A DNA stretch of 64,000 nt from Candidatus Methylomirabilota bacterium. GTDB taxonomy: Bacteria; Methylomirabilota; Methylomirabilia; Rokubacteriales; CSP1-6. Each line of letters opens with the position of its first letter. The stretch's first letter is position 1. Positions 10,174 to 47,797 of the stretch are shown in pieces. Under the pieces are notes generated by a model, which worked only from the letters and a program-made list of their open reading frames with translations, did not search any database and was not told the DNA's origin. Location: positions 1,297 to 65,296 of the forward strand of contig DASYUQ010000115.1 in assembly GCA_036001065.1 (NCBI GenBank), given 5' to 3'. A program made the position numbers and the translations under genes.

Positions 10174-10176
10174 GTC

Positions 10177-10207
10177 CCTCGGAGGGGGGCTTCGCCCCCC
10201 TTCCGAG
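10177..10207. repeat. REP-like hairpin repeat, copy e (A2 subtype only)
   Basis: CTCGGAGGGGGGCTTCGCCCCCCTTCCGAG palindrome. The core is identical to the copy at 51129-51158. Confidence 0.6.
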
Positions 10208-10271
10208 ATTCCTATTCGGAGGAGGCCTCGAGGACGAACGCCGAGGAGAGCAGACCGTAGAGGCGCAGGCG

Positions 10272-11636: not shown

Positions 11637-12399
11637 CGGACTTCAAGTGGGTGAGGATCTCGCGCTCGAACTCCTCGTGCGTCTGACCGAAGGTGCGGAC
11701 GAAGTTCTCCCGGCGGTCCTGGCGCTGGCCGAAGGCGCGGAAATAGGACACCACGCGCTCGAGCCCGTCGCGCTGGATCAGGTAGTCCGCCATCAGGAAG
11801 GCGAGCTGGTACGTGGGCAGCGACCCCTCCCGCCGGTGCCGTAGCGTGAACCCCCGCGGCGAGCCGAGCGTCTCGAGGTCGAGCCGGGCCACCGCCAGCG
11901 CCGCGTGGTTGCGGATGCCGCGGCGCGCCACGACCCGGCGCTTGGGCAGCGCGTCGAGCCCCAGCCGCTCCAGCACCGTGAAGGCGACCCACTCCGCCAT
12001 GCCCTCGGCAAGCCACTGGTCGGCGCGCCCCTCCCCTTGCTGCAGCTCGATCTGGCAGACGTGGGTGAGCTCGTGGGCGATCAGCCGCAGCCACTCGCGC
12101 CCGTGGCCCTCCGCGCCCTCATCGTTGAGGAGGAGCTGGCGGCGCTTGCCGACACCGATCGCGAAGTCGCTCAGCTCGGCCGCCCGGGCCGGGGAGACGT
12201 TCGCGTCCTGGACCAGGCCCCGCTCGAAGACCCGGCGGGAGCCGTACACGAACACGGTGACTTCCTCGGGCACGGGCAATCCGAGGTCGCGGACGAGGAT
12301 GGCGGCGATGCCGCGGACCGCGCTGGCATGGGTCGTCAGCAGTCGCACGTCCTCCGGCACCGCGAGCGACGTAGGCTCGATCGTGACGGGCACGACCAC
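11626..12399 (-). CDS. Hypothetical HExxH zinc-metallopeptidase-like protein, probable lipoprotein
   Basis: HELTH motif (IAHELTHV). GTG start at 12399. A lipobox LVVVSGC is encoded in-frame immediately upstream but lacks a canonical start (see findings). Confidence 0.5.
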   Translation of the reverse strand: MVVPVTIEPTSLAVPEDVRLLTTHASAVRGIAAILVRDLGLPVPEEVTVFVYGSRRVFERGLVQDANVSPARAAELSDFAIGVGKRRQLLLNDEGAEGHGREWLRLIAHELTHVCQIELQQGEGRADQWLAEGMAEWVAFTVLERLGLDALPKRRVVARRGIRNHAALAVARLDLETLGSPRGFTLRHRREGSLPTYQLAFLMADYLIQRDGLERVVSYFRAFGQRQDRRENFVRTFGQTHEEFEREILTHLKSVVP

Positions 12400-16349: not shown

Positions 16350-16970
16350 ATGACGGACCCCGTCCGCGCGATCACCTACTCCGACTATCTCTGACCGTGG
16401 TGCTACCCGGCGGCGGTCCGCCTCCAGCGCCTGGTCGAGGAGTTCGGCGGTCGATTCACGCTCGAGCACCGCGCGTTCCCGCTCCGTCCCGCGCCTGACC
16501 CCTCGGTCACCTTCCAGGGCACCTATCGGGAGGAGGCCTGGCGGCGCTGCGCGCAGATGTCGGCCGGCGACGGGATCGTCTTCAACGCTTGGCCACACGC
16601 GGGCCACTATCCCCACTGGAGCCTTCCCGCCCTGGAGGCCGCCAAGTGCATCGCCCGGCAAGGCCCGGAGGCCTTCGGGCGCATCCACCTGCGCCTCTAC
16701 GAGGCGTTCTTCACGCGGAGCCGGAACATCGCGGATCCCGGCGAGGTCGTGACGATCGTCGCCGAGGCCGGTATCGACACCGAGCGGTTCGTCGCCGATT
16801 ACCGCGCGGGCATCGGGCGCGACGAGGTGATCAAGGATTACCAGGCGGCGATGGAGGAGGGCGTCCGGGCGATTCCCGGCGTGATCTTCCCGGCGACCGG
16901 ACAGGCGCTGGTGGGCCTGGCCGACCTCGCACAGTATCGCGCCGCAGTCGAGGAAGCCGCGCGCTGCTGA
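16350..16970 (+). CDS. DsbA/FrnE-like thiol:disulfide oxidoreductase with in-frame UGA (putative selenocysteine) replacing the first Cys of the CxxC motif
   Basis: Translation from ATG 16350 reads MTDPVRAITYSDYL[TGA]PWCYPAAVRLQ... and continues in the same frame with no stop into the listed ORF 16557..16970. This matches the FrnE/DsbA SDYxCPWCY signature with TGA (16392-16394) at the Cys position. Confidence 0.7.
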
Positions 16971-19231
16971 CCCTCGAGCGGACGCCGCTCCTCTTCGGAC
17001 GCGACGCCACGCCCGGCGTCCTGGCACTCGGGCTCGCCGCGACCGGCGACGCCATCCGGCTGCATCGACGGGCGGCGGGCGGCGTCACGGTGGAGACCGC
17101 GTCGTTTTCCCCGTTCCTCCTGGCCGCGGACGCGGAGCTGCTCCGTGAGGGCCCGGGCTTGGTCGCCCTGAACGAGCTGGCCGGCTCCGGGGCTCTGCGC
17201 TGGATCGCCCGCTACCGTTCCTGGGGCGGGGCGCTGGCCGCGCGTGACCGCTGCCGCGAGCGCTCCGGCCAGCTCGCCTTCGCGCCCGGCGCGCCCTACC
17301 GGTTCTTCCCTGATCCCGTCCACCAGTACCTGCTGCTGACCGGACGCACGTCGTTCGGCGGACTCACCTTCGCCGACCTCCGCCGGGTGGCGCTCGACAT
17401 CGAAGTGCTCACCTCGGAGGGCTTCGAGTTCCCCAACGCGGCGCGGCCGGGCGACCGCATCGTGGCCATCGCGCTCGCCGACTCGACCGGCTTCCGCCAC
17501 GTGATCCGTGGCGATCGGCTGGACGAGCGCGAGCTCCTCCAGGAATGCGTCCGCCTCGTCCGGGAGCGGGACCCCGACGTGATCGAGGGCCACAACATCT
17601 TCCGCTTCGACCTCAAGTACCTGGAGGCCCGGGCCCAGCGACACGGGGTGGTCCTGGCCTGGGGGCGCGACGGCAGCGCCCTGGGGGGACGGCCCTCGCG
17701 CCTGCAGATCGCCGAGCGGACCATCGGCTACCGCCGCTACGAGGTGGCGGGTCGCCACATCATCGACACCTGGATCCTCGCCCAGCTCCACGACGTCGGC
17801 GCCCGGGACCTGCCCTCGTTCGGGCTCAAGGAGATCGCGCGCCATCTCGGCGTTGCCGCCGAAGATCGCACCTACGTCGATCCCGCCACCATTTCCCGGG
17901 AATTCCGGGAGGCCCCCGATCGCTTGATGGCCTATGCGCTCGACGACGTCGTCGAGACGCTTGCCGTGTCGGCGATCCTCTCGCCGCCGTACTTCGCCCA
18001 GGCCCAGGTGGTGCCCTTCGACTACCAGTCGACCGTGCTGCGCGGGGCGGCGGCCAAGATCGACGCCCTGCTGCTGCGCGAGTACCTGCACCGCGGCCAC
18101 GCCGTGCCCCTGCCGCGCCCCGGCGGCGCCGTCGGCGGCGGCCTCGTCGCGATCTTCCACCAGGGGGTCGCCCGCCCCGTGCTCCACGTCGACGTCACCT
18201 CCCTCTATCCCTCGCTGATGCTGGCCGGCGGCATCGCCCCCCAGTCCGACGAGCTGGGAATCTTTCCCGATCTCTTGCGTTACCTCACCGAGTTCCGCGT
18301 GAGGGCCAAGCGCCTGGCCGCGGGCTCCGCCGACCCTGGCGAGCGCGGGCATTTGCTGGCCCTGCAGCAGTCGTTCAAGATCCTGATCAACGCCTTCTAC
18401 GGCTACCTGGCCTTCGCCGGAGGGCACTTCAACGACTTCGAGGCGGCCAATCGCGTCACGGCGGAGGGCCGTGCCACCGTCAGCGCGATCATCGAGCGGC
18501 TCGCCGCCCTGGGAGCCACGGTCCTCGAGGCCGACACGGACGGCGTCTACTTCACGCCGCCGTCGGGCCACGCGCCGGCCGACGACGAGCCGCTGCTCGA
18601 GAAGATCGCCGGCGCGCTCGGACCCGGAATCCACCTCGAGCTGGACGGGCGCTACGCGGCGATGTTCAGTTACAAGCTCAAGACCTACGCGCTGCTCGAC
18701 GCGCAGGGGCGCGTCAACCTGAAGGGCTCAGCCTTCCGGTCCCGCGGGCTCGAGCCCTTCCAGCGGCATCTCATCGAGGAGGTCGTGCGCCTGCTGCTGA
18801 TCGGTCGCGCGGCGGAGGTCAAGGCCGTCGTCGACCGCTGGATGCAGGATTTCGCCGCGCGCCGGGTGCCCCCGCGCGCCTTCGCCCGCACCGAGACGCT
18901 CGGGGAGACGCTGGAGGCGTACCGTGAGCGGGTCCGCGCGGGAGCCCGGAATCCCTCGGCCGCCTATGAGCTGGCCACGGCGGCCGGCCGCGCCTGGCAA
19001 CCCGGCGACCAGGTTTCCTACTACGTGGCGGGGCGCGGCGCCGGGGTGGCGGTGAACGAGTGCGCCAGGCTCCTGGCGGCGTGGGATCCTGCCCGTCGCG
19101 ACGAAAACGTCGAGTACTACCAGGCGAAGGTCGTGGAGATCTGGGAGCGGTTTCGGCCATTCGTCGAGCACGACGGCCTCCGTCCCCCCGCCGACGACGC
19201 CGACGCATCGCCCCAGCTCACGCTCTTCTGA
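16964..19231 (+). CDS. polB: Family B DNA polymerase (E. coli Pol II-like)
   Basis: Exo I motif LDIEVL, Exo II region, YPSLM (SLYPS-like), the KILINAFYGY motif, and the catalytic DTDG (LEADTDGVYF). The 5' end is uncertain: the in-frame region after the DsbA stop has no ATG (CTG at 16964/16967; GTG at 17090). Confidence 0.75.
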   Translation: MLTLERTPLLFGRDATPGVLALGLAATGDAIRLHRRAAGGVTVETASFSPFLLAADAELLREGPGLVALNELAGSGALRWIARYRSWGGALAARDRCRERSGQLAFAPGAPYRFFPDPVHQYLLLTGRTSFGGLTFADLRRVALDIEVLTSEGFEFPNAARPGDRIVAIALADSTGFRHVIRGDRLDERELLQECVRLVRERDPDVIEGHNIFRFDLKYLEARAQRHGVVLAWGRDGSALGGRPSRLQIAERTIGYRRYEVAGRHIIDTWILAQLHDVGARDLPSFGLKEIARHLGVAAEDRTYVDPATISREFREAPDRLMAYALDDVVETLAVSAILSPPYFAQAQVVPFDYQSTVLRGAAAKIDALLLREYLHRGHAVPLPRPGGAVGGGLVAIFHQGVARPVLHVDVTSLYPSLMLAGGIAPQSDELGIFPDLLRYLTEFRVRAKRLAAGSADPGERGHLLALQQSFKILINAFYGYLAFAGGHFNDFEAANRVTAEGRATVSAIIERLAALGATVLEADTDGVYFTPPSGHAPADDEPLLEKIAGALGPGIHLELDGRYAAMFSYKLKTYALLDAQGRVNLKGSAFRSRGLEPFQRHLIEEVVRLLLIGRAAEVKAVVDRWMQDFAARRVPPRAFARTETLGETLEAYRERVRAGARNPSAAYELATAAGRAWQPGDQVSYYVAGRGAGVAVNECARLLAAWDPARRDENVEYYQAKVVEIWERFRPFVEHDGLRPPADDADASPQLTLF

Positions 19232-20743: not shown

Positions 20744-21319
20744 TCACCGCGCGCGACCGCGCCCGCGCGGGAAGCGCGGGATGGCGGCCGGATCCAGGGT
20801 CGGCAGGCCCTCGATCGATTCCCGGACGGCCCGCGCGAACGATGCGAGCTGGAGCCCGCCCAGGCGGCGCCCCTCCAGGCGCGCTCCCCCTTCCGCGAGC
20901 AGCGCGCGGGCGCCGCTGGCGTTGCCGTTGGCGAGATGCTGATAGCCGACGGCGATCTGGATCAACCCTTGAAGGGCCTCGCGGTCGTCGCCCGTCGCCC
21001 GAGTCCAGTGGGGCTCGAGCAGCTCGTGGACCTCGAAGCCGAGCCCGGCGTCGAAGAGGGTGGCCGCCGCCGCCAGCGCGTCGTCGAGGCGGGATCCGGC
21101 CGGCCCCAGCGGCAACGCGCGCACCGCTTCGCTCGCCCGCTGGGCCCGGAGCCGCAGCAGCCTGGCCTGACCGCGCTCGTCGGGGCCGAGCCAGTCGGAC
21201 TCGGCGGCGCCGCCGCGCGCCAGCCGCTCGAGCCCATGGCGGGCCTCGGCGTCGTGCAGGGACTGCAAGATCGTCTCGGCCAGGCGATTGCGCGCGCGCC
21301 AGGGCAGCGTCGGGATCAC
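20744..21319 (-). CDS. DUF309 domain protein
   Basis: Carries the HE.LE..W signature (FEVHELLEPHW). Confidence 0.5.
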   Translation of the reverse strand: MIPTLPWRARNRLAETILQSLHDAEARHGLERLARGGAAESDWLGPDERGQARLLRLRAQRASEAVRALPLGPAGSRLDDALAAAATLFDAGLGFEVHELLEPHWTRATGDDREALQGLIQIAVGYQHLANGNASGARALLAEGGARLEGRRLGGLQLASFARAVRESIEGLPTLDPAAIPRFPRGRGRAR

Positions 21320-21813
21320 AGGACGCCGGAGGGCGTCGATTGGCCGGCGGGCGTCGGCGCGCGGCGGAGAGCGCGCGCGGGCAGCCGCTCCACGCGGCTG
21401 CCGGCGATCAGGTCGTGCAGCGCCCGCTTGTCACGGCGCAGCCCCGCCATGACGAAGCCGAGCCCCAGCGGCAGCGAAGAGACGAAGTAGGCGAGGTACC
21501 GGAGAAACGCCCCACCCACCGGCAGCAACTCACCGTCGATGGCGACGACGCGGATGCCGACCGCCATCTTGCCCACCGTCTGCCCGCCGAGGGCGTGGAG
21601 CACGGTCGTGTAGAGGACGGTGAAGAGCCACGCGAACGCCACCGCGACGACCTGGACGGCGATGGCCTCTTCCGTCTGGCGTCCCCCCAGACGTCCGGCC
21701 ACGAAGCGGAGCGAGGCCAGCACGAGGAAGAACACGATGGAGTCGATCAGCAGCGCGACGACGCGGATCCAGAAGCCGGCCGGGCGGGGTTCGCTCCAAG
21801 CGCGCTCGTTCAC
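21316..21813 (-). CDS. RDD family membrane protein
   Basis: RDD-family features: W.R..A...D, hydrophobic helices, and TVGKM.VGIRVV. GTG start at 21811-21813. The upstream part of the listed 459-aa ORF is an artefact. Confidence 0.55.
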   Translation of the reverse strand: MNERAWSEPRPAGFWIRVVALLIDSIVFFLVLASLRFVAGRLGGRQTEEAIAVQVVAVAFAWLFTVLYTTVLHALGGQTVGKMAVGIRVVAIDGELLPVGGAFLRYLAYFVSSLPLGLGFVMAGLRRDKRALHDLIAGSRVERLPARALRRAPTPAGQSTPSGVL

Positions 21814-21831
21814 GGCGTGTATAATATCGCC

Positions 21832-23037
21832 ATGATTTCGGTGCGGGATGGTCAAAATCGCATCCTCGCACAGGTCACGCAGCGCACCTCGCCGGAGCTC
21901 GTTCCCCTCGCCGATGCGCGCGATCGTGTGCTCTGGGAAGCCGCCCGTGCGTCCTTCGACGTGCCGCCGACGGACAACTCCGCCGTCGATGGCTACGCGG
22001 TGTCGAGCGCCGACATCCCGGCTCGAGACAGCCGCGAGCTGATCGTGGTCGGCGATCTCCCCGCCGGTTCCGTCTTCGACGGCGTGATCCCGCCCGGGCA
22101 GGCCATCCGCATCATGACGGGCGCCCCGATGCCGGCGGGCCCGGACACGGTCTATCCCCAGGAGAGCGTCGAGCGCGTGGGCGATCGCATCCGCGTGCCG
22201 CCGATCGCCAGGGGCGCCAACGTCCGCCGGCGCGGCGAGGACGTGGCCAGCGGCACGGTCGTGATCGAGGCGGGCGCCGTCCTGCGTCCGCAAGAGCTGG
22301 GGCTCCTGGCCTCGCTCGGCCAGCGTCAGGTGCTGGTGAGTCAACCGCCGCGCGTCGCGCTGCTCTCCACCGGCGACGAGGTGGCCGAGCCCGGCGCAAT
22401 CCGCAAGCCCGGGCAGATCTATGACGCGAACCGCTTCACGCTGCGCGGGCTGAGCGAGCAGTGTGGCGGCGTGGTGACCGACCTCGGGATCGTGCCCGAC
22501 CAGCGCGATCGCCTCCGCGCGCGGCTGCTGGAGGCGGCGGAGGTCGCGGACCTCGTCATCACCTCCGGCGGCGTGTCCGTCGGCGCCTACGATCTCGTGA
22601 AGGAGGTGCTGGGCGAGGTCGGCGGCATCGACTTCTGGCAGGTGGCCATGCAGCCGGGACGGCCGCTGGCGGTGGGCCGCATCGGGCGCGCGCACTTCTT
22701 CGGCCTCCCCGGCAATCCCGTCGCCTCCATGCTCACCTTCCTGCTCTTCGTCCGGCCGGCGATCTTCACGCTGGCGGGGCGGCGGCGGGTCTTTCCCGAG
22801 ACCTGGCCGGCGCGCGCGGCGGAGCCGATGCGGAAGAAGGTGGGCCGCCGCGAATTCAAGCGCGGCATCCTCCGCCTCGACCAGGGGTGCTGGGAGGTGC
22901 GCACCACCGGGCCCCAGGGCTCGGGGATCCTGAGCTCGATGGTCGCCGGCAACTGCCTCATCGTCCTCGAGGAGGAGCGCGGCGACGTGGCGGCGGGTGA
23001 CACGGTCCTGATCGAGCCGTTCGGGTGGACGGATTGA
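21832..23037 (+). CDS. moeA: Molybdopterin molybdotransferase MoeA
   Basis: MoeA domain architecture with GGVS.G.D and PGNP motifs (LVITSGGVSVGAYD; GLPGNPVAS). Confidence 0.8.
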   Translation: MISVRDGQNRILAQVTQRTSPELVPLADARDRVLWEAARASFDVPPTDNSAVDGYAVSSADIPARDSRELIVVGDLPAGSVFDGVIPPGQAIRIMTGAPMPAGPDTVYPQESVERVGDRIRVPPIARGANVRRRGEDVASGTVVIEAGAVLRPQELGLLASLGQRQVLVSQPPRVALLSTGDEVAEPGAIRKPGQIYDANRFTLRGLSEQCGGVVTDLGIVPDQRDRLRARLLEAAEVADLVITSGGVSVGAYDLVKEVLGEVGGIDFWQVAMQPGRPLAVGRIGRAHFFGLPGNPVASMLTFLLFVRPAIFTLAGRRRVFPETWPARAAEPMRKKVGRREFKRGILRLDQGCWEVRTTGPQGSGILSSMVAGNCLIVLEEERGDVAAGDTVLIEPFGWTD

Positions 23038-24602
23038 TGGCCGGAGCGCTCACCGTCGAGCTGATCGACGCCCTCAAGGACACCGTCCGCGATCTCCTGC
23101 GCGACACCGCGCGCGCCTTGGCCCACCTCGCCTACGCCGATCTGAGAGTGGAAGTCACCGAGGTGAAGGCCGCCGCCGCCGAGAACGGCGCCAGCAAGTT
23201 CTCGGGCGACGACTACGTCTTCACGCTGGGCGTGCGTGTCCTGGCCGGCCACCGCACCATCGCGCCCGGCTACGTGGGCCTCACGCTCGGCGCCGCCGAC
23301 GTCCCCCACATCGAGCGCGTGATCCGCGAGGCGCTCGAGCGCGCGTACCGGCGGGCCAGCGTGAACGCCGAGATGAAGGCGGACGCGCGGGAGAAGTTCG
23401 GCGCCCTGGGCGCGGCGCTGGCCGACACGCGCCTGCACCCCATCGAGGTGCGCGAGGATACCGTCCCCGCCGTCTACGCGGTGGACCCGCGCTCCATGCG
23501 CCTGGCCGAGATGGTCGCCTACGCCACCGACGTCTCCCGCCAGGTCGCCGCCGTCGACCCCCGCCTCAAATACAACTCGATCTCGACGCTCACCCAGATG
23601 TCGCGCGAGCTCTTCGCCTCGACGGAAGGCGCGCTGATCGACCAGGCCTTCGCCCTGACCCAGGGGGCGTGCTCCATCGTGGCCGTCGCCGGGGTCACCA
23701 GCCAGGACCTCTACGACGTGCTCGGCCACCAGCGGGGCTGGGAAATTCTGTCAGAGGGCGTGGGCGAGTCGCTCATCCGTTTCCCGACGTTCCGCGACTT
23801 CGCCCTGGAGCTCGGCCGGGAGGGGGTGGCCCTGGCCGAGGCGCCGGTCCTGCCCACCGCTGACCGCGAGGTGGTCGTGGTCACGGACCCGCACTACAAC
23901 ACGCTGGTCGCCCACGAGATCGTCGGCCACCCCGTCGAGCTCGACCGCGCGCTCAAGATGGAGACCGCCTACGCCGGCCGCTCCTGGCTCCTGCGCGGTC
24001 TCGGCGAGCACCAGCTCGGCAAGCAGATCGCCTCTCCACTCGTCACCGCGTACTCGGACCCGTCCCTGCCCGGCTACGGCCATTACCGCTACGACCACGA
24101 AGGGGCCCCGGCGCGGCGGGTCGTCCACATCGACCGCGGGATCTTCACGGGCTTCATGAATAGCCGCCAGACCGCCGCGATCTTTGGCGGGGCGCCCAAC
24201 GGGCACTACAAGGCCACCGACGCCGCGTTGGTGCCGCTGATCCGGATGTCCAACACCGTCTTCGCCGGTGGCGACCGCGACCCACGCGACATCCTGAAGG
24301 AGGTCGACCATGGCTACTATGTGGCCGGCCATCGCATCCCGTCGATCGCCGAGAGCCGCGAGAACTTCCGGATCTCCGCGCGACGCGTCCACGAGATCCG
24401 GAACGGCGAGCTGGGCCGTCTCTACCGCGACGGCGGCATCGCCGCCGACAGCCGCGACTACCTGATGAACGTGGACGCCGTCGGCTCGGACTTCCTGCTG
24501 TACCCGATCCCCAACTGCGGCAAGGGCCAGCCCATGCAGACGAAGAAGCTCGGCAACGGGGGCCCCACGATGCGCAGTCGGGCCCGGGTGGTGGGGGGCT
24601 GA
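23025..24602 (+). CDS. TldD/PmbA-family metalloprotease, divergent TldD-like paralogue
   Basis: HExxxH-type motif HEIVGHPVE and the TldD/PmbA fold region. At 525 aa it is longer than the canonical TldD at 46352..47797. Confidence 0.65.
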   Translation: MDGLMAGALTVELIDALKDTVRDLLRDTARALAHLAYADLRVEVTEVKAAAAENGASKFSGDDYVFTLGVRVLAGHRTIAPGYVGLTLGAADVPHIERVIREALERAYRRASVNAEMKADAREKFGALGAALADTRLHPIEVREDTVPAVYAVDPRSMRLAEMVAYATDVSRQVAAVDPRLKYNSISTLTQMSRELFASTEGALIDQAFALTQGACSIVAVAGVTSQDLYDVLGHQRGWEILSEGVGESLIRFPTFRDFALELGREGVALAEAPVLPTADREVVVVTDPHYNTLVAHEIVGHPVELDRALKMETAYAGRSWLLRGLGEHQLGKQIASPLVTAYSDPSLPGYGHYRYDHEGAPARRVVHIDRGIFTGFMNSRQTAAIFGGAPNGHYKATDAALVPLIRMSNTVFAGGDRDPRDILKEVDHGYYVAGHRIPSIAESRENFRISARRVHEIRNGELGRLYRDGGIAADSRDYLMNVDAVGSDFLLYPIPNCGKGQPMQTKKLGNGGPTMRSRARVVGG

Positions 24603-24606
24603 AGCC

Positions 24607-25011
24607 GTGGGCCGGGCGCTGATCCCCCTGCTGGTGGCGGCACTGCTCCTGGGGGCCGCGGCGCCGGCGGCGCCGCCCGAGTATCCGGTCGCCTTCGTCA
24701 CGGTGGACGAGCTGCAGGGGGCGCTCGATCGCGGTCTGCCGGCGGACGTGATCGACGTGCGCGCGCGGGGCGAGTTCGACGAGCTGCACATCAAAGGCGC
24801 GCGCTCGATGCCGCTCCCCAGCGTCGCCGACAGGATCGGCGAGATCCCCCGGACGGGCCTCGTGGTCTTCTACTGAGCGTGCCCGCACGCGCTGTCCCGG
24901 GGGGCCAGCAACATCCTGTACGCGCGCGGGTGGCGCAACCATCGCGTGCTCGACGAGGGCCTGCCCGGCTGGATCGCGCACGGCTACCCGGTAGAGGGCG
25001 CGCGCCGATGA
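24607..25011 (+). CDS. Secreted single-domain rhodanese with in-frame UGA (putative selenocysteine) at the catalytic Cys position
   Basis: Signal peptide and rhodanese N-part end ...GLVVFY[TGA 24874-24876]. The same frame continues ACPHALSRGASNILYARGWRNHRVLDEGLPGWIAHGYPVEGARR, a typical rhodanese C-terminus, to TGA 25009-25011. ATGA overlap with the next gene. Confidence 0.65.
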
Positions 25012-26567
25012 TCGCGACCGCCGATCTCGCCAAGGCGGCGCGAGCGGCGCTGGAGTATGCGCAGGCCCAGCCCGGCGTGCGCGAGGTGGAAATCTTCGCC
25101 GCCGCCAATACGAGCCTGCTCACCCGGCTCTGCTACACCTCGCACATCGCCTCCAACGGCGTGGAGGAGCCGAAGTCCGCCCAGGCCCACGGCATCGGCA
25201 TCCAGGCGGTGTTCGATGGGCCCCAGGGTCCCCGGCTCGGCTTCGGCAGCGAGCCCAGCGACCTCACGCCGGGCGGCGCCGAGCGGGCGCTGGGCAAGGC
25301 GCGGGCCGCCGCCGTCCTCGATCCCGAGTTCGTCTCGCTACCGCGCCCGCGCCGCGAGCCGCGCGTCCTCTTCGATTATCACGACCCCAAGCTCATGGCC
25401 CTCGACGACGCGAGCCTGGTGGAGGCCGGCTGGAAGGTGGTCGGGGGCGCGCTCCGGACCTTCCTGGCGTCCTCCCGCCTGGCCGAGCTGGCGGGGAGCG
25501 ACGAGGGGCTCCGGGCCCTCGGCCTCATCCTCGGCGGCGACGTCACCGTTGTCCAGGAGCGCATCGCCATCGCCTCCACCCACCTGCCCCAGGTGCAGAC
25601 GGACGAATCGGCGCTGATCACCGCGTTCGTCACCGCGATGGTGGAGGCCCGCGATGCCAAGGGCTCGGGCTGGTCCACCGGCGTGCGCCTGGACCACTTC
25701 ACCGACGAGTCCGGCGTCGACGCCGCCCAGCGCGCCATCGAGGCCATCGGCGGCCGGCGGGTGCCGTCGGGCGAGTACACGGTCATCTTCGGCAAGCAGC
25801 CGGTGGCCGACCTGCTCAACAACCTCATCGTGCCGGCGTGCACGGCCAGCGCCTTCTACGCCTCCAGCACGCCCTTCCTGGCCAAGCTCGGCCGACGGGT
25901 GGCCTCCCCGCTCCTCACCATCTACGATCACGGTGCCATGCCCGGGCTCATGGGCTCCAAAGGCATCACCTGTGAGGGCCTGTCCACCGGGCGCACCGAT
26001 CTCATCAAGGACGGGATCCTCGTCGGGTGCCTCAGCAACTGGTACGAATCACAACGGCTGCTCCAAGATCCCGCGCTCGCTGGCAAGCTCGGTGCAACCG
26101 GAAAGGCCGCGGAGGCCGCGCTGGTGCCGCGCAACGGCTTCCGCTTCGAGGCCGGCGGTGGCCGCCAGTTCTACACTCAGCCGGGGATCGCCGCCTCGAA
26201 CGTGCTGGTGGAGGGAAGCTCGCCGGCGTCCCTGGACGAGCTGATCCGGACGGTGAGGGACGGGCTTTACATCGGTCGCATCTGGTACACGTATCCCATC
26301 AACGGGCTCCGGGCGGGCGATTTCACCTGCACGGTCGTCGGCGATTCGTATATCATCCGCGATGGCCGCCTGGCGGCGCCGCTCCGGCCCAACACGGTGC
26401 GGATCAACGACAACATCCTCAGAGTCCTGAACGCCGTCGTCGGCATCACCAAGGACGTGAAGGGCACCATCGTGTGGGCGGCCGACGAGGTCGTCTACGC
26501 CCCCGAGATCGCCGTCGCCGGCCTCCGGGTCGAAGAGATCGCCGGCTTCATGGAGGGGCTTTCCTGA
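25008..26567 (+). CDS. TldD/PmbA-family protein, PmbA/TldE-like paralogue
   Basis: PmbA/TldD family similarity throughout. The start was set at MIATADLAK (ATG 25008), overlapping the rhodanese stop. Confidence 0.65.
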   Translation: MIATADLAKAARAALEYAQAQPGVREVEIFAAANTSLLTRLCYTSHIASNGVEEPKSAQAHGIGIQAVFDGPQGPRLGFGSEPSDLTPGGAERALGKARAAAVLDPEFVSLPRPRREPRVLFDYHDPKLMALDDASLVEAGWKVVGGALRTFLASSRLAELAGSDEGLRALGLILGGDVTVVQERIAIASTHLPQVQTDESALITAFVTAMVEARDAKGSGWSTGVRLDHFTDESGVDAAQRAIEAIGGRRVPSGEYTVIFGKQPVADLLNNLIVPACTASAFYASSTPFLAKLGRRVASPLLTIYDHGAMPGLMGSKGITCEGLSTGRTDLIKDGILVGCLSNWYESQRLLQDPALAGKLGATGKAAEAALVPRNGFRFEAGGGRQFYTQPGIAASNVLVEGSSPASLDELIRTVRDGLYIGRIWYTYPINGLRAGDFTCTVVGDSYIIRDGRLAAPLRPNTVRINDNILRVLNAVVGITKDVKGTIVWAADEVVYAPEIAVAGLRVEEIAGFMEGLS

Positions 26568-27484
26568 TGACAGACGTGGCTCGTCTCGAAGCGATCGCCC
26601 GCGAATGCCGCGTGCAGATCATCCGGATGCTGGCCCACGCGGGCTCGGGGCATCCGGGCGGCTCGCTCTCGGTCATCGACCTCGTGGTGACGCTCATGTT
26701 CGGCCGCATGCGGCACGATCCCCAGCGCCCCCACTGGCCCGAGCGGGACCGGCTGATCCTGTCCAAGGGTCACGCGGTCCCCGCCCTCTACGCGGCGATG
26801 GCCCGCGCCGGGTATTTCGCCGACGACCGGCTGATCACGCTCCGCAAGCTGGGCAGCCCGCTGCAGGGGCACCCCGACCGTACCGTGCTGCCCGGCATCG
26901 AGGCCGCCACGGGCTCGCTGGGCCAGGGGCTCTCGATCTCGCTGGGGATCGCGCTCGGCCTCAAGATGGCCGGCTCGCCGGCGCGCGTGTACTGCATCCT
27001 CGGCGACGGCGAGATCCAGGAGGGTCAGGTCTGGGAAGCGGCGATGTCCGGCCCCCAGCTGGGCCAGCCCCGGCATCCCCTCGACAATCTCACCGTGATC
27101 CTGGACTACAACAAGATCCAGCTGGACGACTTCGTCGCCAAGATCCGCGACCTCGAGCCCGTGCTGGCCAAGTGGCAGGCGTTCGGCTGGCCGGTGGTCG
27201 AGATCGACGGCCACCAGATCGATCAGATCGACAAGGCCCTCGATCAGGCCGAAACCACCCGCGGCAAGCCCTCTTTCATCGTGGCCCACACCGTCAAGGG
27301 CAAGGCCGTGTCGTTCATGGAAAACCAGCCCGAGTGGCACGGCAAGGCGCCCAAGCCGGCCGAGGCGATCGCGGCCGTCCGCGAGATCCTGGGCGTCACC
27401 GAGGCCGCCTGGGAGGAGTATCTGGCCAAGGATTCCACCGCCCGCGCGCTCGTCAGCGAGCTGCGCGCGCTCGAGAGAAAGTAA
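26567..27484 (+). CDS. Transketolase, N-terminal (TPP-binding) subunit of a split transketolase
   Basis: GHPGGSLS, the GDGE TPP-binding motif (ILGDGEIQEG), and about 300 aa in size. The start ATG overlaps the upstream stop (TGATG). Confidence 0.8.
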   Translation: MTDVARLEAIARECRVQIIRMLAHAGSGHPGGSLSVIDLVVTLMFGRMRHDPQRPHWPERDRLILSKGHAVPALYAAMARAGYFADDRLITLRKLGSPLQGHPDRTVLPGIEAATGSLGQGLSISLGIALGLKMAGSPARVYCILGDGEIQEGQVWEAAMSGPQLGQPRHPLDNLTVILDYNKIQLDDFVAKIRDLEPVLAKWQAFGWPVVEIDGHQIDQIDKALDQAETTRGKPSFIVAHTVKGKAVSFMENQPEWHGKAPKPAEAIAAVREILGVTEAAWEEYLAKDSTARALVSELRALERK

Positions 27485-27494
27485 GGAGACCTGG

Positions 27495-28421
27495 ATGCCT
27501 GGGAAAGCCACCCGCGCGGCGTTCGGCGAGGCGCTCCTCGAGCTAGGAGCGCGCGACGAGCGGATCGTCACCCTCGACGCCGATCTCTCGAAGTCCACGA
27601 TGACCGTGGCCTTCGCCAAGAAGCATCCCGACCGCGCCTTCAACCTAGGCATCGCCGAGCAGAACATGATCGGCATCGGGGCCGGCCTGGCGCTGGCCGG
27701 GAAGATTCCCTTCGTGTGCTCGTTCGCCTGCTTCCTGGTGGGCCGGTTCGAGACGGTCCGGATGTCCGTCGCCTACACCAACGCCAACGTGAAGCTCGTC
27801 GGCACCCACGCCGGGATCGCCATCGGCGAGGACGGCTACAGCCAGATGGGGCTCGAGGACGTGGCCTGCATCCGGTCCCTGCCGAACATCGCGATCGTCC
27901 AGCCCGCGGACGAGCTGGAGACCAAGCAGGCCGTGGCTTACGCCGTCGAGCACGAGGGCCCGGTCTACCTGCGGCTCACGCGCCAGAACATGGAGCCGGT
28001 CTGTCCGCCCGACTATCGCTTCCGGCTGGGCCAGTGGCTCCTGCTGCGCGCGGGCCACGACGTCACCCTCATCGGCTCGGGCGGGCCGATCGGGAACTGC
28101 CTGGAGGCCGCCAAGCTGCTGGCCGCCGAGGGAATCTCGGCGGAGGTCATCGACGCGGCGTCGATCAAGCCGCTCGACGAGGATCTGTTGTTACGCTCGG
28201 CCGGCCGCACCGGCCACGTCGTCACCGTCGAGGACCACGCGCTGGCGGGCGGTCTGGGCGGCGCCGTCGCCGAACTGCTCGGCGAGGTCATGCCCACGCC
28301 GTTGAAGCGGCTGGGGGTGCAGGGCTTCGGCGAGTCCGGCGATCCCCAGGGGCTCTACGCCAAGCACGGCCTCGATCCGGCCGGCATAGCCGCCAGCGTG
28401 AGGAAGTTCCTCAACCGCTGA
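27495..28421 (+). CDS. Transketolase, C-terminal (pyrimidine-binding / C-domain) subunit
   Basis: LGIAEQNMIGIGAGLA motif, typical of the split transketolase B subunit. Confidence 0.8.
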   Translation: MPGKATRAAFGEALLELGARDERIVTLDADLSKSTMTVAFAKKHPDRAFNLGIAEQNMIGIGAGLALAGKIPFVCSFACFLVGRFETVRMSVAYTNANVKLVGTHAGIAIGEDGYSQMGLEDVACIRSLPNIAIVQPADELETKQAVAYAVEHEGPVYLRLTRQNMEPVCPPDYRFRLGQWLLLRAGHDVTLIGSGGPIGNCLEAAKLLAAEGISAEVIDAASIKPLDEDLLLRSAGRTGHVVTVEDHALAGGLGGAVAELLGEVMPTPLKRLGVQGFGESGDPQGLYAKHGLDPAGIAASVRKFLNR

Positions 28422-28444
28422 GACGCCCGGGCGCAGGGCCTGGC

Positions 28445-29065
28445 TCAGTCGCGAAAGTTCAGCTCGCGCAGCGTCTGCTCGATGCGCTCGCGGTGGGCGC
28501 GGGCCCAGTCGTCCAGGGACTGGGCGGCGTCCTTGGCCGCCTTGGCTTCGGCGGCGCTCAGGATCTCCTGGGCGCGTCCCAGCGGGACGACCACGATCCC
28601 CTCCTCGTCGGCCACGACGATGTCGCCCGGCGCCACCCGGACGCCCCCACAACTGACGGGACCGTTGAGCACGCCCGCGCGCCGCTTGTCGCCGGGGATG
28701 GGGATGACGCCGCGGGCGAAGACCGGGAACCCCCGCTCGCGCACCTCGGCCACGTCGCGGATGACGCCGTCGACGACGAACGCGGCGATCCCGCGCTTCT
28801 GAGCCCACGCGCACACGTTGCCCCCCGAGACCGCGTAGTCGCGGTCGCCGGCCTCGACCACGACGATCGCGCCAGCGGGCGCGCGGTGGATGGCGGCGTG
28901 CAGCATCAGGTTGTCCCCCCGGTCACAGCGCACGGGATAGGCCGGCCCGGCCACGCGCGGGATCGGCGCCCAGGCGGGGCGGATGCCGTGGTCCATCACG
29001 TGGTCGCGCGTCAGCACATCGGCGAAAGTCGTGGGGCTCAGACGGGCAAAGGCCTTGGTGTCCAT
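28445..29065 (-). CDS. RraA-family protein (4-hydroxy-4-methyl-2-oxoglutarate aldolase / RNase E inhibitor RraA-like)
   Basis: 206-aa RraA/MenG fold (AIHRAPAGAIVVVEAGD...GGNVCAWAQKRG...DGVIRD). The start was set at MDTKAF inside the longer listed ORF. Confidence 0.65.
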   Translation of the reverse strand: MDTKAFARLSPTTFADVLTRDHVMDHGIRPAWAPIPRVAGPAYPVRCDRGDNLMLHAAIHRAPAGAIVVVEAGDRDYAVSGGNVCAWAQKRGIAAFVVDGVIRDVAEVRERGFPVFARGVIPIPGDKRRAGVLNGPVSCGGVRVAPGDIVVADEEGIVVVPLGRAQEILSAAEAKAAKDAAQSLDDWARAHRERIEQTLRELNFRD

Positions 29066-29067
29066 GG

Positions 29068-29845
29068 TCACTCCGATAGTTTGAGGAGGAGCCCCGAGCG
29101 CCGCGCGCGGCGGACGGCCGCCACCAGCGCCCAGTGGGACACTAGAACATAGCCGGCGGCGAGCGGGAAGCCCACCGCCAGCGGGGCACTGAACTCGGGG
29201 GCGAACCCGTAGTGCGCCCGGTACGCATCCAGAAAATAGGTCAGGGGAATCGCCGCCGCCACGCCGGCCACGGGGCCCGGCAAGACGGAGATGGGATAGT
29301 AGATCCCCGCCAGCAGCAGGACGAGATTGATGCTGGCCCAGGCCGCGGTCTCCGCCCGCAGTCCGACCAGCATGACCAGCGCGCAGACGAGGACTCCGAT
29401 GACCCACGCGGTCAGAAAGCACCCGGCCAGGAACGCCGCCAGCGGCAACGGTCCGGCGTCGAGCGGGTCGAAGCCGAAGGCCCACCGGGCCAGCGCGGCC
29501 TGCAGGAGGAAGACGAACACCCCGCGCAGCATGCCGACGATCCAGGCGCCCACGGTGAGATGCCGCACGCCGATCGGCGCCACGAACTGGTGCTTCATCG
29601 ACTTGCTCCAGGCGTCGTAGAGCAGGGCGTAGGCGACGTCGAGCTGGCAGACCTGCAGCGTGTTGAACGCGATCGTCCCGATGAGGACGAAGGAGATCTC
29701 CGGGCCGGAGAGCCCCAGGAACCGGGTGAGGAGGCCGATCGACATCACGTTGACCACCGGCCAGAAGAGCAGCTCGAAGAGCAGGAAGACGTTGCGGGAC
29801 GCCATCTGGAGATTGCGCAACGCGAAGGCCCAGACGGCCACCAGC

Positions 29846-31157: not shown

Positions 31158-31561
31158 GCGGCGGGCCGGTCGACATCGAGGAGGCCAACGCGCGGTTCTA
31201 CCGGGCGTTCGAGGCGCTCGATCTGGCCGAGATGGACAAGGTGTGGGCGCACGGCGACCACGTCAAGTGCGTCCACCCCGGCTGGCCGCTGCTGGCGGGC
31301 TGGGACGCGGTGCGCGCCTCCTGGGAGGCGATCTTCAGCAGCACCGGCGAGATCCGCTTCACCATCAGCGACGTGCAGGTGGCGGCCCGCGGCGACCTCG
31401 GCTGGGTCACCTGCACGGAAAACATCCTCTCCCAGGTCCGCGGTCGCGTGTCGGTGACGTCGGTGCTGGCCACCAACATCTTCGAGCAGGGACCCGACGG
31501 CTGGCGCATGATCCACCACCACGCCTCCCACGTCCTGGGGGCCTCCGCCTCCGAGCCTTGA
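31154..31561 (+). CDS. SnoaL-like / NTF2-like (DUF4440) domain protein
   Basis: NTF2-like fold signature (ANARFYRAFEALDLAEM...W). ATGA overlap with the Rieske gene. Confidence 0.55.
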   Translation: MSGGPVDIEEANARFYRAFEALDLAEMDKVWAHGDHVKCVHPGWPLLAGWDAVRASWEAIFSSTGEIRFTISDVQVAARGDLGWVTCTENILSQVRGRVSVTSVLATNIFEQGPDGWRMIHHHASHVLGASASEP

Positions 31562-45008: not shown

Positions 45009-46355
45009 TTAGTTCCCGGCGACCACCATGCGGGCGATCTTGAGCGTGGGCGAGGCGGTGCGGTCGCGGAGCACGAGGTCGTTGCCCACCCCGTCGACCG
45101 CGTCGAACATCTCCAGGAGATTCCCGGCGACGGTGACCTCCTCGACCGGATAGGCGAGCCGGCCGTTCTCGATCCAGTGGCCCACGGCGCCCCGCGAGTA
45201 GTCGCCGGTGACGCCGTTGACGCCGAAGCCGATCAGCTCCGTGACGTAGAAGCCTTCCGTCACCGACGCGATCAGCTCCGCGGGCGGCGTCGTTCCCGGG
45301 CGCAGCGTGAGGTTGGTCGTCCCCACGGTGACGCCGCTGCCGTCCCGCACGGCGTGGTGCGTGGAGGCCAGGCCGAGCTTGCGGGCGCCGTAGGTGTCGA
45401 GCAGATACGACTCCAGCACGCCCTCCCGGACGACGACCGTCCGCCGCACCGGCAGCCCCTCGCCGTCGAACGGCCGCGAGCCCAGCGCGCCTGCGATCAG
45501 TCCGTCGTCGACGATCGTCACCGACGGAGCGGCGATGCGCGAGCCCAGCCGGTCGCAGAGGAACGAGGCGCGCCGGTAGAGACTCGGCCCGCTGGCGGCC
45601 GAGGCCAGCGCCCGGACGAGGCTGGCGGCCGTCTCGGGATCGAAGATGACGGGGACCTCCACGGTCTTCACCTTGCGGGCCCCCAGCCGCTGGAGCGCGC
45701 GCGCCGCCGCCATCCGGCCCACCGCCGCGGGATCCTCCAGCCCCGCCCGCTGGCGGGCCATCGAGTACCAGGTGTCGCGCTGCATCTCTCCGTTCCGGGC
45801 GGCGACCGGCGAGACGGTGATGCCGAAGCTCGAGGTCGCGTAGGCGCGCGCGAACCCGGACGAGGTCGCGTACGCGTACCGCGCCTGGCGATCCCAGTGC
45901 TCCGCGCCTTCGGAGTTGGTGATCCGCGGATCGGCGGCCAGCGCCGCCGCCTCGGCCCGGCGCGCGATCTCGATCTTCTCCTCGGGCGTGAGGTCGTGCC
46001 CCGAGGCATCGCGCAGACCCAGGTCGGGCACGCGATCGATCAGCTCGGCGGGATCGGGAAGGCCGGCGTGCGGATCCTCGGCGGTGATGCGGGCCAGGCG
46101 CGTCGCCTCGTCCACCACCCGCCCGAGCGACTCCGGCGACAGGTCGGAGGTCGACGCGGCGGCAGAGGCCGTGCCGGCGAAGACGCGCAGGGACAGCCGC
46201 TGCTCGTGCGAGTGCGTCACCGTGTCCACCTCGCCCAGCCGAACGGTGGCGCTGAAGCGGCGCTCCTCCACGAGGAAGGCGTCGGCGGCGGTGGCGCCCC
46301 GCGCGGTGGCGCGCTTGAGCACCGAGACGAGCAGGTCGCTGCTGAGCTGGCTCAC
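45009..46355 (-). CDS. pmbA: Metalloprotease PmbA/TldE
   Basis: PmbA family similarity. It forms an overlapping pair with the upstream tldD. Confidence 0.75.
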   Translation of the reverse strand: MSQLSSDLLVSVLKRATARGATAADAFLVEERRFSATVRLGEVDTVTHSHEQRLSLRVFAGTASAAASTSDLSPESLGRVVDEATRLARITAEDPHAGLPDPAELIDRVPDLGLRDASGHDLTPEEKIEIARRAEAAALAADPRITNSEGAEHWDRQARYAYATSSGFARAYATSSFGITVSPVAARNGEMQRDTWYSMARQRAGLEDPAAVGRMAAARALQRLGARKVKTVEVPVIFDPETAASLVRALASAASGPSLYRRASFLCDRLGSRIAAPSVTIVDDGLIAGALGSRPFDGEGLPVRRTVVVREGVLESYLLDTYGARKLGLASTHHAVRDGSGVTVGTTNLTLRPGTTPPAELIASVTEGFYVTELIGFGVNGVTGDYSRGAVGHWIENGRLAYPVEEVTVAGNLLEMFDAVDGVGNDLVLRDRTASPTLKIARMVVAGN

Positions 46356-47797
46356 ACCTGGGTGCCTCCCACCGTCATGCCGTCGATGCGGATCGTCGGC
46401 AGGCCCACGCCGACCGGCACCGACTGGCCGTCCTTGCCGCAGGTGCCGATGCCTTCGTCGAGCTGCAGGTCGTGCCCCACGCGCGTCACGCGTGTGAGCG
46501 CCTCGGGGCCGTTGCCGATGAGCGTGGCGCCCTTTACGGGCGCGGTGATGCGCCCGTCCTCGACGAGGTAGGCCTCGCTGGCGGAGAAGACGAACTTGCC
46601 GCTGGTGATGTCCACTTGCCCGCCGCCGAAGGAGACGGCGTAGAGACCGTACGTCACCGAGCGGATGATGTCCTCGGGGTCGTCTTCCCCGGCCAGCATG
46701 AAGGTGTTCGTCATGCGGGGCATCGGCGGACAGGCGTAGGACTCGCGGCGGCCGTTGCCCGTCGGCTGCATGCCCATGAGGCGCGCGTTGAGCTTGTCCT
46801 GCATGTAGCCGCAGAGAACGCCCCGGTCGATGAGGACGGTGCGCCCGGTGGGCGTGCCCTCGTCGTCCACGTTCAGCGAGCCGCGCCGGTTGGGGATGGT
46901 GCCGTCGTCCACGACGGTGACCAGCTCCGAGGCGACCTTCTGGCCCATGCGCCCCGCGAAGGCGGACACGCCCTTGCGGTTGAAGTCGCCCTCCAGCCCG
47001 TGCCCGACCGCTTCGTGGAGGAGAATCCCGGGCCAGCCGGGGCCGAGCACCACCGTCATCGCTCCCGCGGGCGCGCCGACGGCCCGAAGCTTCAGCGTCG
47101 CCTGTCGCGCGGCCTCGGCAGCGAACCGCTGCCAGCGCTCCCGCTCGAGGAAGAAGTCGAAGCCGACGCGGCCGCCGCCTCCGTACGCGCCGATCTCGCG
47201 CTTTCCCCCTTCCTCGGCGATGACCGTCACGTTGAGGCGGGTGAGCGGGCGGATGTCCCCCACCGTCCAGCCCGCGGCGGTGGCGATCAGCATGACCGCA
47301 TCCTCGCTGGTGAGGCTCGCGATCACCTGCTTGACCCGCGCGTCGGCGGCGCGAGCCGCCCGGTCCACCGATCTCAGCAGATCCAGCTTGCGCGTGAGGT
47401 CCGTGGCGATGGGAGGCTCGGGCAGCGTATAGAGGTCGTGCGGTCGTCCGCTCGGCACCGCCACGACCGCCGAGGCGCTCGCCTGCGAGGCGATGGCCCG
47501 GGCCTGGCGCGCCGCCTCCTCGAGGTTCCCCAGCGAGATGTCGTCGGTATGGGCGTAGCCGGTCCGGGCGCCCGCCTGGGCCCGAACCCCGGCCCCCTGG
47601 CTCACGTGCCGGGAGGCCTTCTTTACGGTCCCTTCCTCGAGTACGAGCTCTTCGTTGATACAGTACTCGAGGTAGATGTCAGCATCGTCCACCCTGCCCT
47701 TGAGCGCCGAGCCGATCAGGCGGTCGATGAGGCCCGGCGTGACGTCGAACCGGTCGGCAAAGAAGCGCTCCGGCCGGACATGCACGAGGTCAGTCAT
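46352..47797 (-). CDS. tldD: Metalloprotease TldD
   Basis: HEAVGHGLE metal-binding motif and a GxC...dimer region. 481 aa. Confidence 0.8.
   Translation of the reverse strand: MTDLVHVRPERFFADRFDVTPGLIDRLIGSALKGRVDDADIYLEYCINEELVLEEGTVKKASRHVSQGAGVRAQAGARTGYAHTDDISLGNLEEAARQARAIASQASASAVVAVPSGRPHDLYTLPEPPIATDLTRKLDLLRSVDRAARAADARVKQVIASLTSEDAVMLIATAAGWTVGDIRPLTRLNVTVIAEEGGKREIGAYGGGGRVGFDFFLERERWQRFAAEAARQATLKLRAVGAPAGAMTVVLGPGWPGILLHEAVGHGLEGDFNRKGVSAFAGRMGQKVASELVTVVDDGTIPNRRGSLNVDDEGTPTGRTVLIDRGVLCGYMQDKLNARLMGMQPTGNGRRESYACPPMPRMTNTFMLAGEDDPEDIIRSVTYGLYAVSFGGGQVDITSGKFVFSASEAYLVEDGRITAPVKGATLIGNGPEALTRVTRVGHDLQLDEGIGTCGKDGQSVPVGVGLPTIRIDGMTVGGTQV

Follow-up and report, generated by a model that had tools for sequence, protein, structure and literature searches.

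A Predicted Selenocysteine Rhodanese between the Genes of a Second, Long-Form TldD/PmbA Pair in a Putative Operon of Candidatus Methylomirabilota

Introduction

In Escherichia coli, TldD and TldE form a heterodimeric metalloprotease (PDB 5NJ5; Ghilarov et al. 2017), which processes microcin B17 and the CcdA protein (PMC5810440). The present study deals with a stretch of 64,000 nucleotides from a soil bacterium of Candidatus Methylomirabilota (Rokubacteria; contig DASYUQ010000115.1), hereafter referred to as the window, in which a second and longer TldD/PmbA-type gene pair encloses a small rhodanese gene featuring an in-frame UGA codon. Both elements are part of a row of six open reading frames (ORFs) on the forward strand (21832-28421), which were identified by means of Pfam and NCBIfam as moeA, the TldD-like gene, the rhodanese gene, the PmbA-like gene, and the genes for the N-terminal and the C-terminal half of a transketolase. 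The G+C content of the window is approximately 71%, and its nearest relatives are metagenome-assembled Candidatus Rokubacteria / Methylomirabilota genomes; the best database match of the TldD-like protein (94% identity) originates from Candidatus Rokubacteria bacterium 13_1_40CM_69_27.

Rhodaneses consisting of a single domain, e.g., PspE and GlpE, as well as the solved domains 3tp9 and 1yt8, comprise approximately 100 residues, with the catalytic residue located right after the central beta-strand. PspE is exported to the periplasm. Bacterial selenocysteine insertion sequences (SECIS) of the fdhF type are hairpins residing within the coding sequence shortly after the UGA codon and featuring a G-rich apical loop. 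For rhodaneses containing selenocysteine (Sec), five forms were listed in a recent review, namely UxxS, UxxG, CxU (NF041203), UxxG, and UxxxxU, and a Methylomirabilota genome encoding 63 predicted selenoproteins was also reported therein (PMC13188914).

A Conserved In-Frame UGA in the Rhodanese Gene

The following features of the rhodanese gene are considered in this section:

24607..25011, + strand: single-domain rhodanese, predicted exported selenoprotein of 134 aa including Sec90 (PF00581)
24874..24876, + strand: UGA predicted to be read as Sec90, at the canonical rhodanese catalytic-Cys position (conservation, Cys ortholog, structure alignment)
24891..24909, + strand: candidate SECIS-like hairpin, GCUGUCCC-GGG-GGGCCAGC, with a G-rich loop; the stem begins 14 nt after the UGA

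The TGA codon at 24874-24876 very probably encodes selenocysteine, and the comparative support for this assignment is strong. The rhodanese domain was recognized by PF00581 with 47.5 bits (cutoff 22.2), and the in-frame TGA is embedded in the context GLVVFY-U-ACPHALSRG, giving the motif FY-U-A-C-P-H. The TGA was kept in all 18 distinct orthologous loci, and is followed by a frame of 44 codons that remains open until just before the start of the PmbA-like gene. The protein encoded by this frame is conserved even in orthologs sharing only 46-47% identity, according to the pattern CPHAL-[SA]-RGAS..LY..G[WY]RN..[VI]L[DE]EG[LI]PGW..[GR]YP. Pairwise differences downstream of the UGA amounted to 0.18, 0.13, and 0.36 for codon positions 1, 2, and 3, respectively, a distribution typical of coding regions evolving under purifying selection, and the G+C content at third codon positions (GC3) after the TGA was 0.91, the same as for real genes in the window. 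Moreover, the ortholog P0123, residing in the same neighborhood of TldD-like, PmbA-like, and transketolase genes (rhodanese, PmbA-like gene, and transketolase halves), reads VVFYCACPHALS and thus has a cysteine at the UGA position, and the UGA codon aligns with the catalytic cysteine of the solved rhodaneses 3tp9 and 1yt8. Since five of the six genes in the operon, among them the rhodanese gene itself, end with UGA as their ordinary stop codon, the data point to site-specific recoding and not to an altered genetic code. Given the selenoprotein-rich Methylomirabilota genome with 63 predicted members (PMC13188914), the use of Sec in this phylum is to be expected.

The hairpin at 24891-24909 represents a candidate SECIS element, this assignment being likely but not proven. 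Across 18 sequences, 87.5% of the pair cells were paired, as compared to 21-60% when the partners were slid, and one compensatory exchange of a C-G for a U-A pair, brought about by two synonymous substitutions, was found in locus L020. Third-position pairwise differences were approximately 3.5-fold fewer over codons +6 to +11, which harbor the hairpin (0.108), than in the flanks (0.38-0.44), and the otherwise less used glycine codon GGG in the hairpin was kept in 16 out of 17 sequences. By the published rules for bacterial SECIS elements, the hairpin resembles those of the fdhF type in its location within the coding sequence and in its G-rich apical loop at approximately 22 nt from the UGA. 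It differs from them in that no curated model matches it and in that its stem contains a U-C mismatch in the window. RNAalifold chose a different, weak helix of five pairs; neither this result nor the minimum-free-energy fold by itself supports or excludes a SECIS element.

Several observations weigh against Sec insertion at this codon. Covariation within the hairpin was not significant, with a single compensatory change and 85 out of 500 shuffles reaching an equal value. The minimum-free-energy fold of the 73 nt following the UGA had a z-score of 0.01 versus shuffles, and an Rfam scan of 24500-25200 returned only matches at chance level and no SECIS model. It is on account of the non-significant covariation, the missing Rfam model, and the uninformative single-sequence fold that the SECIS element is rated as likely rather than proven. 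ARAGORN detected no tRNA and hence no tRNA-Sec in the window, and the Sec machinery is likewise not present within it. Together with the gene callers and the NCBI annotation, which give a product of 89 aa, the absence of an Rfam match, the unremarkable fold energy, and the missing tRNA-Sec could be taken to mean that the TGA is a true stop, leaving an 89-aa fragment or a decaying pseudogene followed by a non-coding spacer. Such a product, however, would be missing both the catalytic residue and the final third of the fold. Moreover, the conservation of the TGA and of the 44-codon open frame in 18 out of 18 loci down to 46% protein identity, the predominance of third-position variation after the TGA along with the coding-like GC3 value, and the ortholog carrying a cysteine at the exact codon in the same gene context make the true-stop explanation very improbable.

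Almost all database homologs (hundreds of entries) are annotated as proteins of 89 aa ending in VVFY, i.e., they are cut at the UGA. Two full-length metagenome homologs carry other residues at the Sec/Cys site, namely arginine in P0122 (VVFYRTCPNAL) and leucine in P0145 (AVFYLTCPHAL), with the cysteine at position +2 being kept. They may be TGA variants arising from sequencing or assembly (CGA and TTA, respectively), or forms relying on the second cysteine. A scan of the window for further in-frame TGA candidates gave only the codons at 31559 and 31901 (+ strand) and at 6612 (- strand), with coding-like GC3 on both sides; they look like ordinary stops before spurious or adjacent ORFs.

By inspection, the rhodanese N-terminus MGRALIPLLVAALLLGAAAPAAPP resembles a signal peptide, and this segment is conserved in all orthologs. 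Read by eye, the rhodanese looks exported, and both protease subunits appear to be devoid of a signal peptide. The secreted Sec-rhodanese proposed in the original prediction is upheld as a signal-peptide-bearing selenoprotein candidate.

The window protein shares the size of the domain and the location of the catalytic residue with the single-domain rhodaneses, and, as far as the putative signal peptide is concerned, export with PspE. It differs from 3tp9 and 1yt8 by predicted Sec in place of Cys, an active-site loop that is one residue longer, and an extra cysteine at position +2. The window protein also matched the MoeZ and MoeB rhodanese domains, if only weakly. The best NCBIfam match was NF041203 (rhodanese_LYCAU, 'form 3'), although its score of 43.8 bits stayed below the cutoff of 115. 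Both are small rhodanese-domain selenoproteins (predicted as such for the window protein), the active-site loop of which contains a Cys and a Sec at a distance of two residues; the order is reversed, however, being U-A-C(-P-H) with Sec at the catalytic position in the window protein, as opposed to C-A-U in NF041203. The predicted U-x-C motif matches none of the five Sec-rhodanese forms listed.

The Long-Form TldD/PmbA Pair

The two protease-like genes enclosing the rhodanese gene, and the canonical pair in the same window, are as follows:

23037..24602, + strand: long-form TldD-like catalytic subunit, 521 aa from ATG 23037 (alternative start GTG 23025, 525 aa) (PF19289)
23913..23930, + strand: HEIVGH (HExxxH) metal-binding motif of the TldD-like protein, residues 293-298, aligning with HEAVGH of E. 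coli TldD
24516..24518, + strand: codon of Cys494 in NCGKG, predicted third metal ligand, aligning with Cys454 (CGK) of E. coli TldD (PMC5810440)
25008..26567, + strand: long-form PmbA/TldE-like subunit, 519 aa, without metal-binding motif (PF19289)
45009..47797, - strand: canonical pair outside the operon, consisting of tldD (46352-47797, 481 aa) and pmbA (45009-46355, 448 aa)

The PmbA_TldD fold was recognized in both long-form proteins by PF19289 (123 bits for the TldD-like and 126.5 bits for the PmbA-like protein). The former aligns to E. coli TldD (PDB 5nj5_A) with E = 7e-18, and the best PDB matches of the latter are the PmbA proteins 1vl4, 1vpb, and 5nj5_B. The HEIVGH motif matches residues H262, E263, and H267 of E. 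coli TldD (PMC5810440), and H293, E294, H298, E301, D303, C494, G495, and K496 were invariant in 11 sequences being 42-78% identical to the window protein. Neither HExxxH nor HExxH was found in the PmbA-like sequence. Hence, the TldD-like protein, as judged from these alignments, keeps the full metal site, composed of HExxxH, Glu/Asp, and CGK, and its PmbA-like partner is predicted to be without one. The question raised in the original prediction, namely whether the metal site is complete, can thus be answered in the affirmative at the level of the residues.

Like E. coli TldD/TldE, the long-form pair consists of two related subunits of the PmbA_TldD fold, of which only the TldD-type subunit carries HExxxH and the distal cysteine of CGK; the clamp-tethering Glu/Asp and Lys residues are also conserved in the TldD-like protein. 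Differences concern the identity of approximately 30%, which is limited to the C-terminal half, the additional length of 40-70 residues, and the scores, which fall far under the cutoffs of the NCBIfam equivalogs (71.8 bits vs. 513 for NF008006, TldD, and 45 bits vs. 438 for NF008268, PmbA). Furthermore, the long-form genes are adjacent to each other and occur alongside a canonical pair in one genome. For the latter, TldD scored above the cutoff of NF008006 (602 vs. 513 bits) and PmbA below that of NF008268 (329 vs. 438 bits).

The presence of this second, longer pair in addition to the canonical one, as stated in the original prediction, was confirmed. The long-form proteins share 31% and 29% identity with their canonical counterparts in the window, confined to the C-terminal halves. 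With identities of only about 30%, a recent duplication of the canonical pair, which would have spoken against the original prediction, is rejected, and the two pairs are old paralogues. An exhaustive profile search retrieved full-length relatives of approximately 520 aa with identities as low as about 42%; the matches ranking beneath these were shorter TldD types at about 35%. By these measures, the long-form pair constitutes an ancient, uncharacterised TldD/E subfamily lying outside every curated model.

Layout and Transcription of the Putative Operon

The remaining features of the putative operon are listed below:

21818..21825, + strand: extended -10 box TGTATAAT, 6 nt before the moeA ATG, likely promoter (conservation)
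21832..23037, + strand: moeA, molybdopterin molybdotransferase, 401 aa (Pfam MoeA_N, MoCF_biosynth, MoeA_C; NCBIfam NF007960)
26567..27484, + strand: transketolase N-terminal (thiamine diphosphate-binding) half, 305 aa (PF00456, 171 bits; NF004559 positions 14-293 of 627)
27495..28421, + strand: transketolase C-terminal half (pyrimidine-binding and C-terminal domain), 308 aa (PF02779, PF02780; NF004559 positions 318-625 of 627)

MoeA passed the cutoff of NF007960 (481.2 vs. 440 bits), and all three MoeA domains were found. The two halves belong to a short-type transketolase. They resemble the split transketolases found in archaea and certain bacteria, which consist of two subunits, in that they jointly cover positions 14-293 and 318-625 of the 627 positions of NF004559. 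They differ in that each half alone falls below the full-length cutoff, and they may serve a true transketolase reaction or a related ketol transfer.

The moeA stop codon TGA (23035-23037) overlaps with the ATG start of the TldD-like gene at 23037 (TGATG), GTG 23025 being the other candidate start. The rhodanese gene follows after a gap of 4 nt with a GTG start at 24607, and overlaps with the PmbA-like gene by ATGA (25008/25011), which in turn overlaps with the gene for the transketolase N-half by TGATG (26565/26567). The transketolase halves are separated by a 10-nt gap holding the Shine-Dalgarno sequence AAGGAG. Six genes on the + strand, joined by overlaps or gaps of 4-10 nt, are therefore present as originally described. 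As for the protein lengths reported at that time, the 519 aa of the PmbA-like protein hold, whereas the 525 aa given for the TldD-like protein should probably be replaced by 521 aa: ATG 23037 is the more likely start, most orthologs being 520-522 aa long.

Consensus scans of 21300-28800 revealed neither internal promoter-like nor terminator-like sites, and a scan for the full sigma-70 consensus yielded no promoter in this region and no -35 match for the -10 box. The promoter call is accordingly based on conservation across loci: a TATAAT-type box (TAnAAT), located 6-8 nt ahead of the moeA ATG, was kept in 26 out of 30 related loci, in genomes of approximately 70% GC. An RDD-family gene on the - strand (GTG start, complement ending at 21813) is divergent from moeA (ATG 21832), leaving 18 nt between the two start codons. 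Since the TGTATAAT box lies inside this gap, a -35 region would fall within the RDD coding sequence, and moeA is probably leaderless; the closeness of the conserved box to the ATG points in the same direction. The box thus probably acts as the promoter from which the operon is transcribed as a leaderless mRNA.

The genes lie on the same strand and overlap or nearly abut, with one predicted promoter and no internal terminator-like site. On these grounds, and in view of the conserved TATAAT box, a six-gene operon on one transcript is credible, and the single transcript suggested in the original prediction is regarded as plausible.

In the surroundings, a family-B DNA polymerase gene is encoded approximately 2.6 kb upstream (16589-19231, + strand), its position being conserved among Rokubacteria (DNA_pol_B_exo1 and DNA_pol_B in L001 and L004), and an RraA-like ORF (read by eye) is located downstream of the transketolase genes (28445-29485, - strand). 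In some of the loci with the rhodanese gene, the transketolase genes are instead followed closely by the gene for a 248-aa membrane protein matching DsbD_2 weakly (L004/L005, 13635-14381, - strand). This neighbor recalls TsoB, a selenoprotein representing a rhodanese/DsbD fusion.

Gene Order across Relatives

To evaluate the gene order, 80 loci were collected by a scan at one genome per species, and their content was mapped by using the six proteins of the window as tblastn queries. The TldD-like and PmbA-like genes were linked in Rokubacteria, Nitrospirota, Dehalococcoidia/SAR202, Brocadiales, and Planctomycetota, with identities of 48-79%. In nearly all loci of sufficient length, the TldD-like gene was followed by the PmbA-like gene in the same orientation, no PmbA-like match being obtained in L067, L069, and L071. 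The arrangement with moeA upstream and the split transketolase downstream of the pair was seen only in Rokubacteria/Methylomirabilota; outside this group, no moeA, rhodanese, or transketolase gene was found near the pair. Consequently, the conserved gene order named as a check in the original prediction applies within Rokubacteria, whereas across phyla only the protease pair stays linked.

Clustering of neighboring ORFs in the non-Rokubacteria loci revealed no neighbor common across phyla. The genes located there represent lineage-specific housekeeping synteny and include dihydroxy-acid dehydratase-, malic enzyme-, and enoyl-CoA hydratase-like genes (named by eye) as well as an aldolase/SDR fusion confirmed by Pfam. 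Within Rokubacteria, synteny extends to PolB, RRM, DUF309, and RDD genes upstream and to ABC transporter, Rieske, and SnoaL genes downstream. As the flanks are also syntenic, the conserved order in this clade is inseparable from shared descent, and the co-occurrence of the six genes did not go beyond general synteny.

The rhodanese gene was present in 18 distinct Rokubacteria loci, which belong to both main crown subclades of a neighbor-joining tree. It was missing from L017 and from the clade comprising L021, L022, L025, L027, L028, and L048 plus L024, in each of which moeA, the pair, and the transketolase genes are retained, and also from the basal loci L026 and L046 and all other phyla of the set. 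The simplest history compatible with this distribution would be a single acquisition, after which the gene was lost at least twice.

In many Dehalococcoidia, unrelated genes spanning 0.4-3.5 kb separate the TldD-like gene from the PmbA-like gene, and this junction looks like a recurrent insertion site. The slot was occupied by RmuC (several loci), a HicA toxin, a retropepsin-like aspartyl protease, one to three PaREP1 copies, and CBS, and furthermore by a transposase-like ORF, an acyltransferase, and an aldolase/SDR fusion together with RNase H. Loci with inserted genes are L032, L044, L047, L053, L055, L057, L059, L061, L063-L066, L070, L073-L075, and L077 (approximately 8550-12000 in locus coordinates). 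The only recurring downstream neighbor outside Rokubacteria and Dehalococcoidia was a QueF-like ORF (identified by eye), which comes immediately after the PmbA-like gene in six loci of the Nitrospirota type, e.g., L030 (10252-10779) and L038 (5092-5625).

The moeA gene precedes the TldD-like gene also in L031 (201-3313), L046 (2129-6464), and L026. L031 is labelled Deltaproteobacteria and groups with Methylomirabilis-like loci in the tree, in which L046 is basal. From L031 and L046, it follows that the adjacency of moeA and the TldD-like gene is older than that of the transketolase or rhodanese genes.

One Functional Unit or Co-Transcribed Separate Genes

The locus is probably best described as an operon whose genes are transcribed together but serve separate functions, no common pathway being demonstrable. 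This reading is favored over a functional module because the pair alone is kept together by selection, and the rhodanese is lineage-specific, dispensable, and apparently exported; judged from its distribution, the rhodanese gene behaves as a lineage-specific, dispensable insertion at an insertion-tolerant junction.

With the conserved TATAAT box shortly before the moeA ATG as its probable origin, the transcript would be leaderless and run through six translationally coupled genes. The evolutionary core of the operon would be the ancient second TldD/TldE-type pair, with the predicted metal site (His293, Glu294, His298, and Cys494) on the TldD-like subunit. By analogy with E. coli TldD/E, the pair may form a hollow heterodimeric metallopeptidase degrading or trimming unfolded cytoplasmic peptides; the adjacency of the two genes, conserved in 80 loci, lends indirect support to a heterodimer. 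The small rhodanese gene appears to have been inserted between the protease genes in the ancestor of crown Rokubacteria. Its UGA codon would be recoded to Sec with the help of the downstream hairpin, both being conserved, presumably through decoding by SelB. Outside the cytoplasm, the rhodanese would most likely act as a sulfur/selenium-transfer or redox protein, cycling through a Se-S bond between the catalytic Sec and the cysteine. MoeA and the split transketolase would be ordinary housekeeping neighbors on the shared transcript.

Some findings weigh against such a separation. Rhodanese-type sulfurtransferases participate in the synthesis of the molybdenum cofactor. The moeA/TldD-like pairing in L026, L046, and L031 hints at an association older than plain synteny. 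In all contexts examined, including three look-ups started from the rhodanese, members of this rhodanese family were always located between the two protease genes, and the predicted translational coupling of the rhodanese to both of them would also fit a functional tie. In addition, the tree underlying the gain and loss scenario is a neighbor-joining tree without support values, and the presence or absence of signal peptides, on which export of the rhodanese is predicated, was judged by eye.

According to the original prediction, the six genes form one unit for peptide or cofactor maturation or sulfur transfer, in which the Sec-rhodanese would exchange sulfur or selenium with a process in which the TldD/E-like protease and MoeA take part. 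The tight coupling of the genes fits this proposal, as do the recurrence of the order moeA, TldD-like, rhodanese, PmbA-like, TktN, and TktC despite differing downstream flanks (Laminin_G_3 in L088, an ABC transporter in L001), the restriction of the rhodanese family to its slot, and the weak matches to the MoeZ and MoeB rhodanese domains. However, the rhodanese was lost in at least two Rokubacteria lineages keeping the other five genes, moeA and the transketolase genes are beside the pair in none of the other phyla, unrelated genes occupy the same slot elsewhere, and synteny in Rokubacteria reaches well past the operon on both sides. Furthermore, an export signal was seen on the rhodanese and none on MoeA, the protease subunits, or transketolase, so that the rhodanese should work in a different compartment. 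The proposal of a single unit is therefore not sustained and is considered unlikely. The accompanying remark that the combination was not recognised as a described unit agrees with full-text searches for TldD with rhodanese or selenoprotein and literature searches for Rokubacteria selenoproteins, none of which revealed a description of this arrangement; the module, were it real, would be new.

Even less probable is a narrower tie, in which the Sec-rhodanese would be the dedicated partner of the long-form TldD/E pair, either as a selenium/sulfur carrier that depends on the protease for the control of its maturation, turnover, or export, or by servicing the Cys-liganded metal site. This idea derives from the finding that the rhodanese occurs only between the protease genes and is translationally coupled to both.

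A role of the long-form pair in specifically removing the leader from, or maturing, a ribosomally made peptide encoded nearby, for which the processing of microcin B17 and CcdA by TldD/E (PMC5810440) and the discussion of TldD/PmbA homologs among leader-peptide-removing proteases of modified-peptide pathways (PMC10885120) could be cited, is highly implausible, since no conserved precursor-like or modification-enzyme gene was located beside the pair in any of the 80 loci and the neighbors are housekeeping genes varying by lineage.

Conclusions

The locus advises caution, as tight operon packing in a strongly syntenic clade did not equal a conserved functional unit. Should the rhodanese nevertheless turn out to be a dedicated partner of the protease, it would be the first selenoprotein tied to TldD/E and would provide the first physiological role for a non-microcin TldD/E pair. 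The long-form pair, with its intact predicted metal site, is conserved over at least five phyla; since TldD/E has as yet no clear housekeeping role, such an old and separately kept paralogous pair represents a reasonable target. Reading the UGA as Sec would restore the full enzyme to hundreds of 89-aa entries of a soil-abundant rhodanese, and the U-x-C form with a catalytic Sec would add to the known Sec-rhodanese forms and may be useful for surveys of the Rokubacteria/Methylomirabilota selenoproteome.

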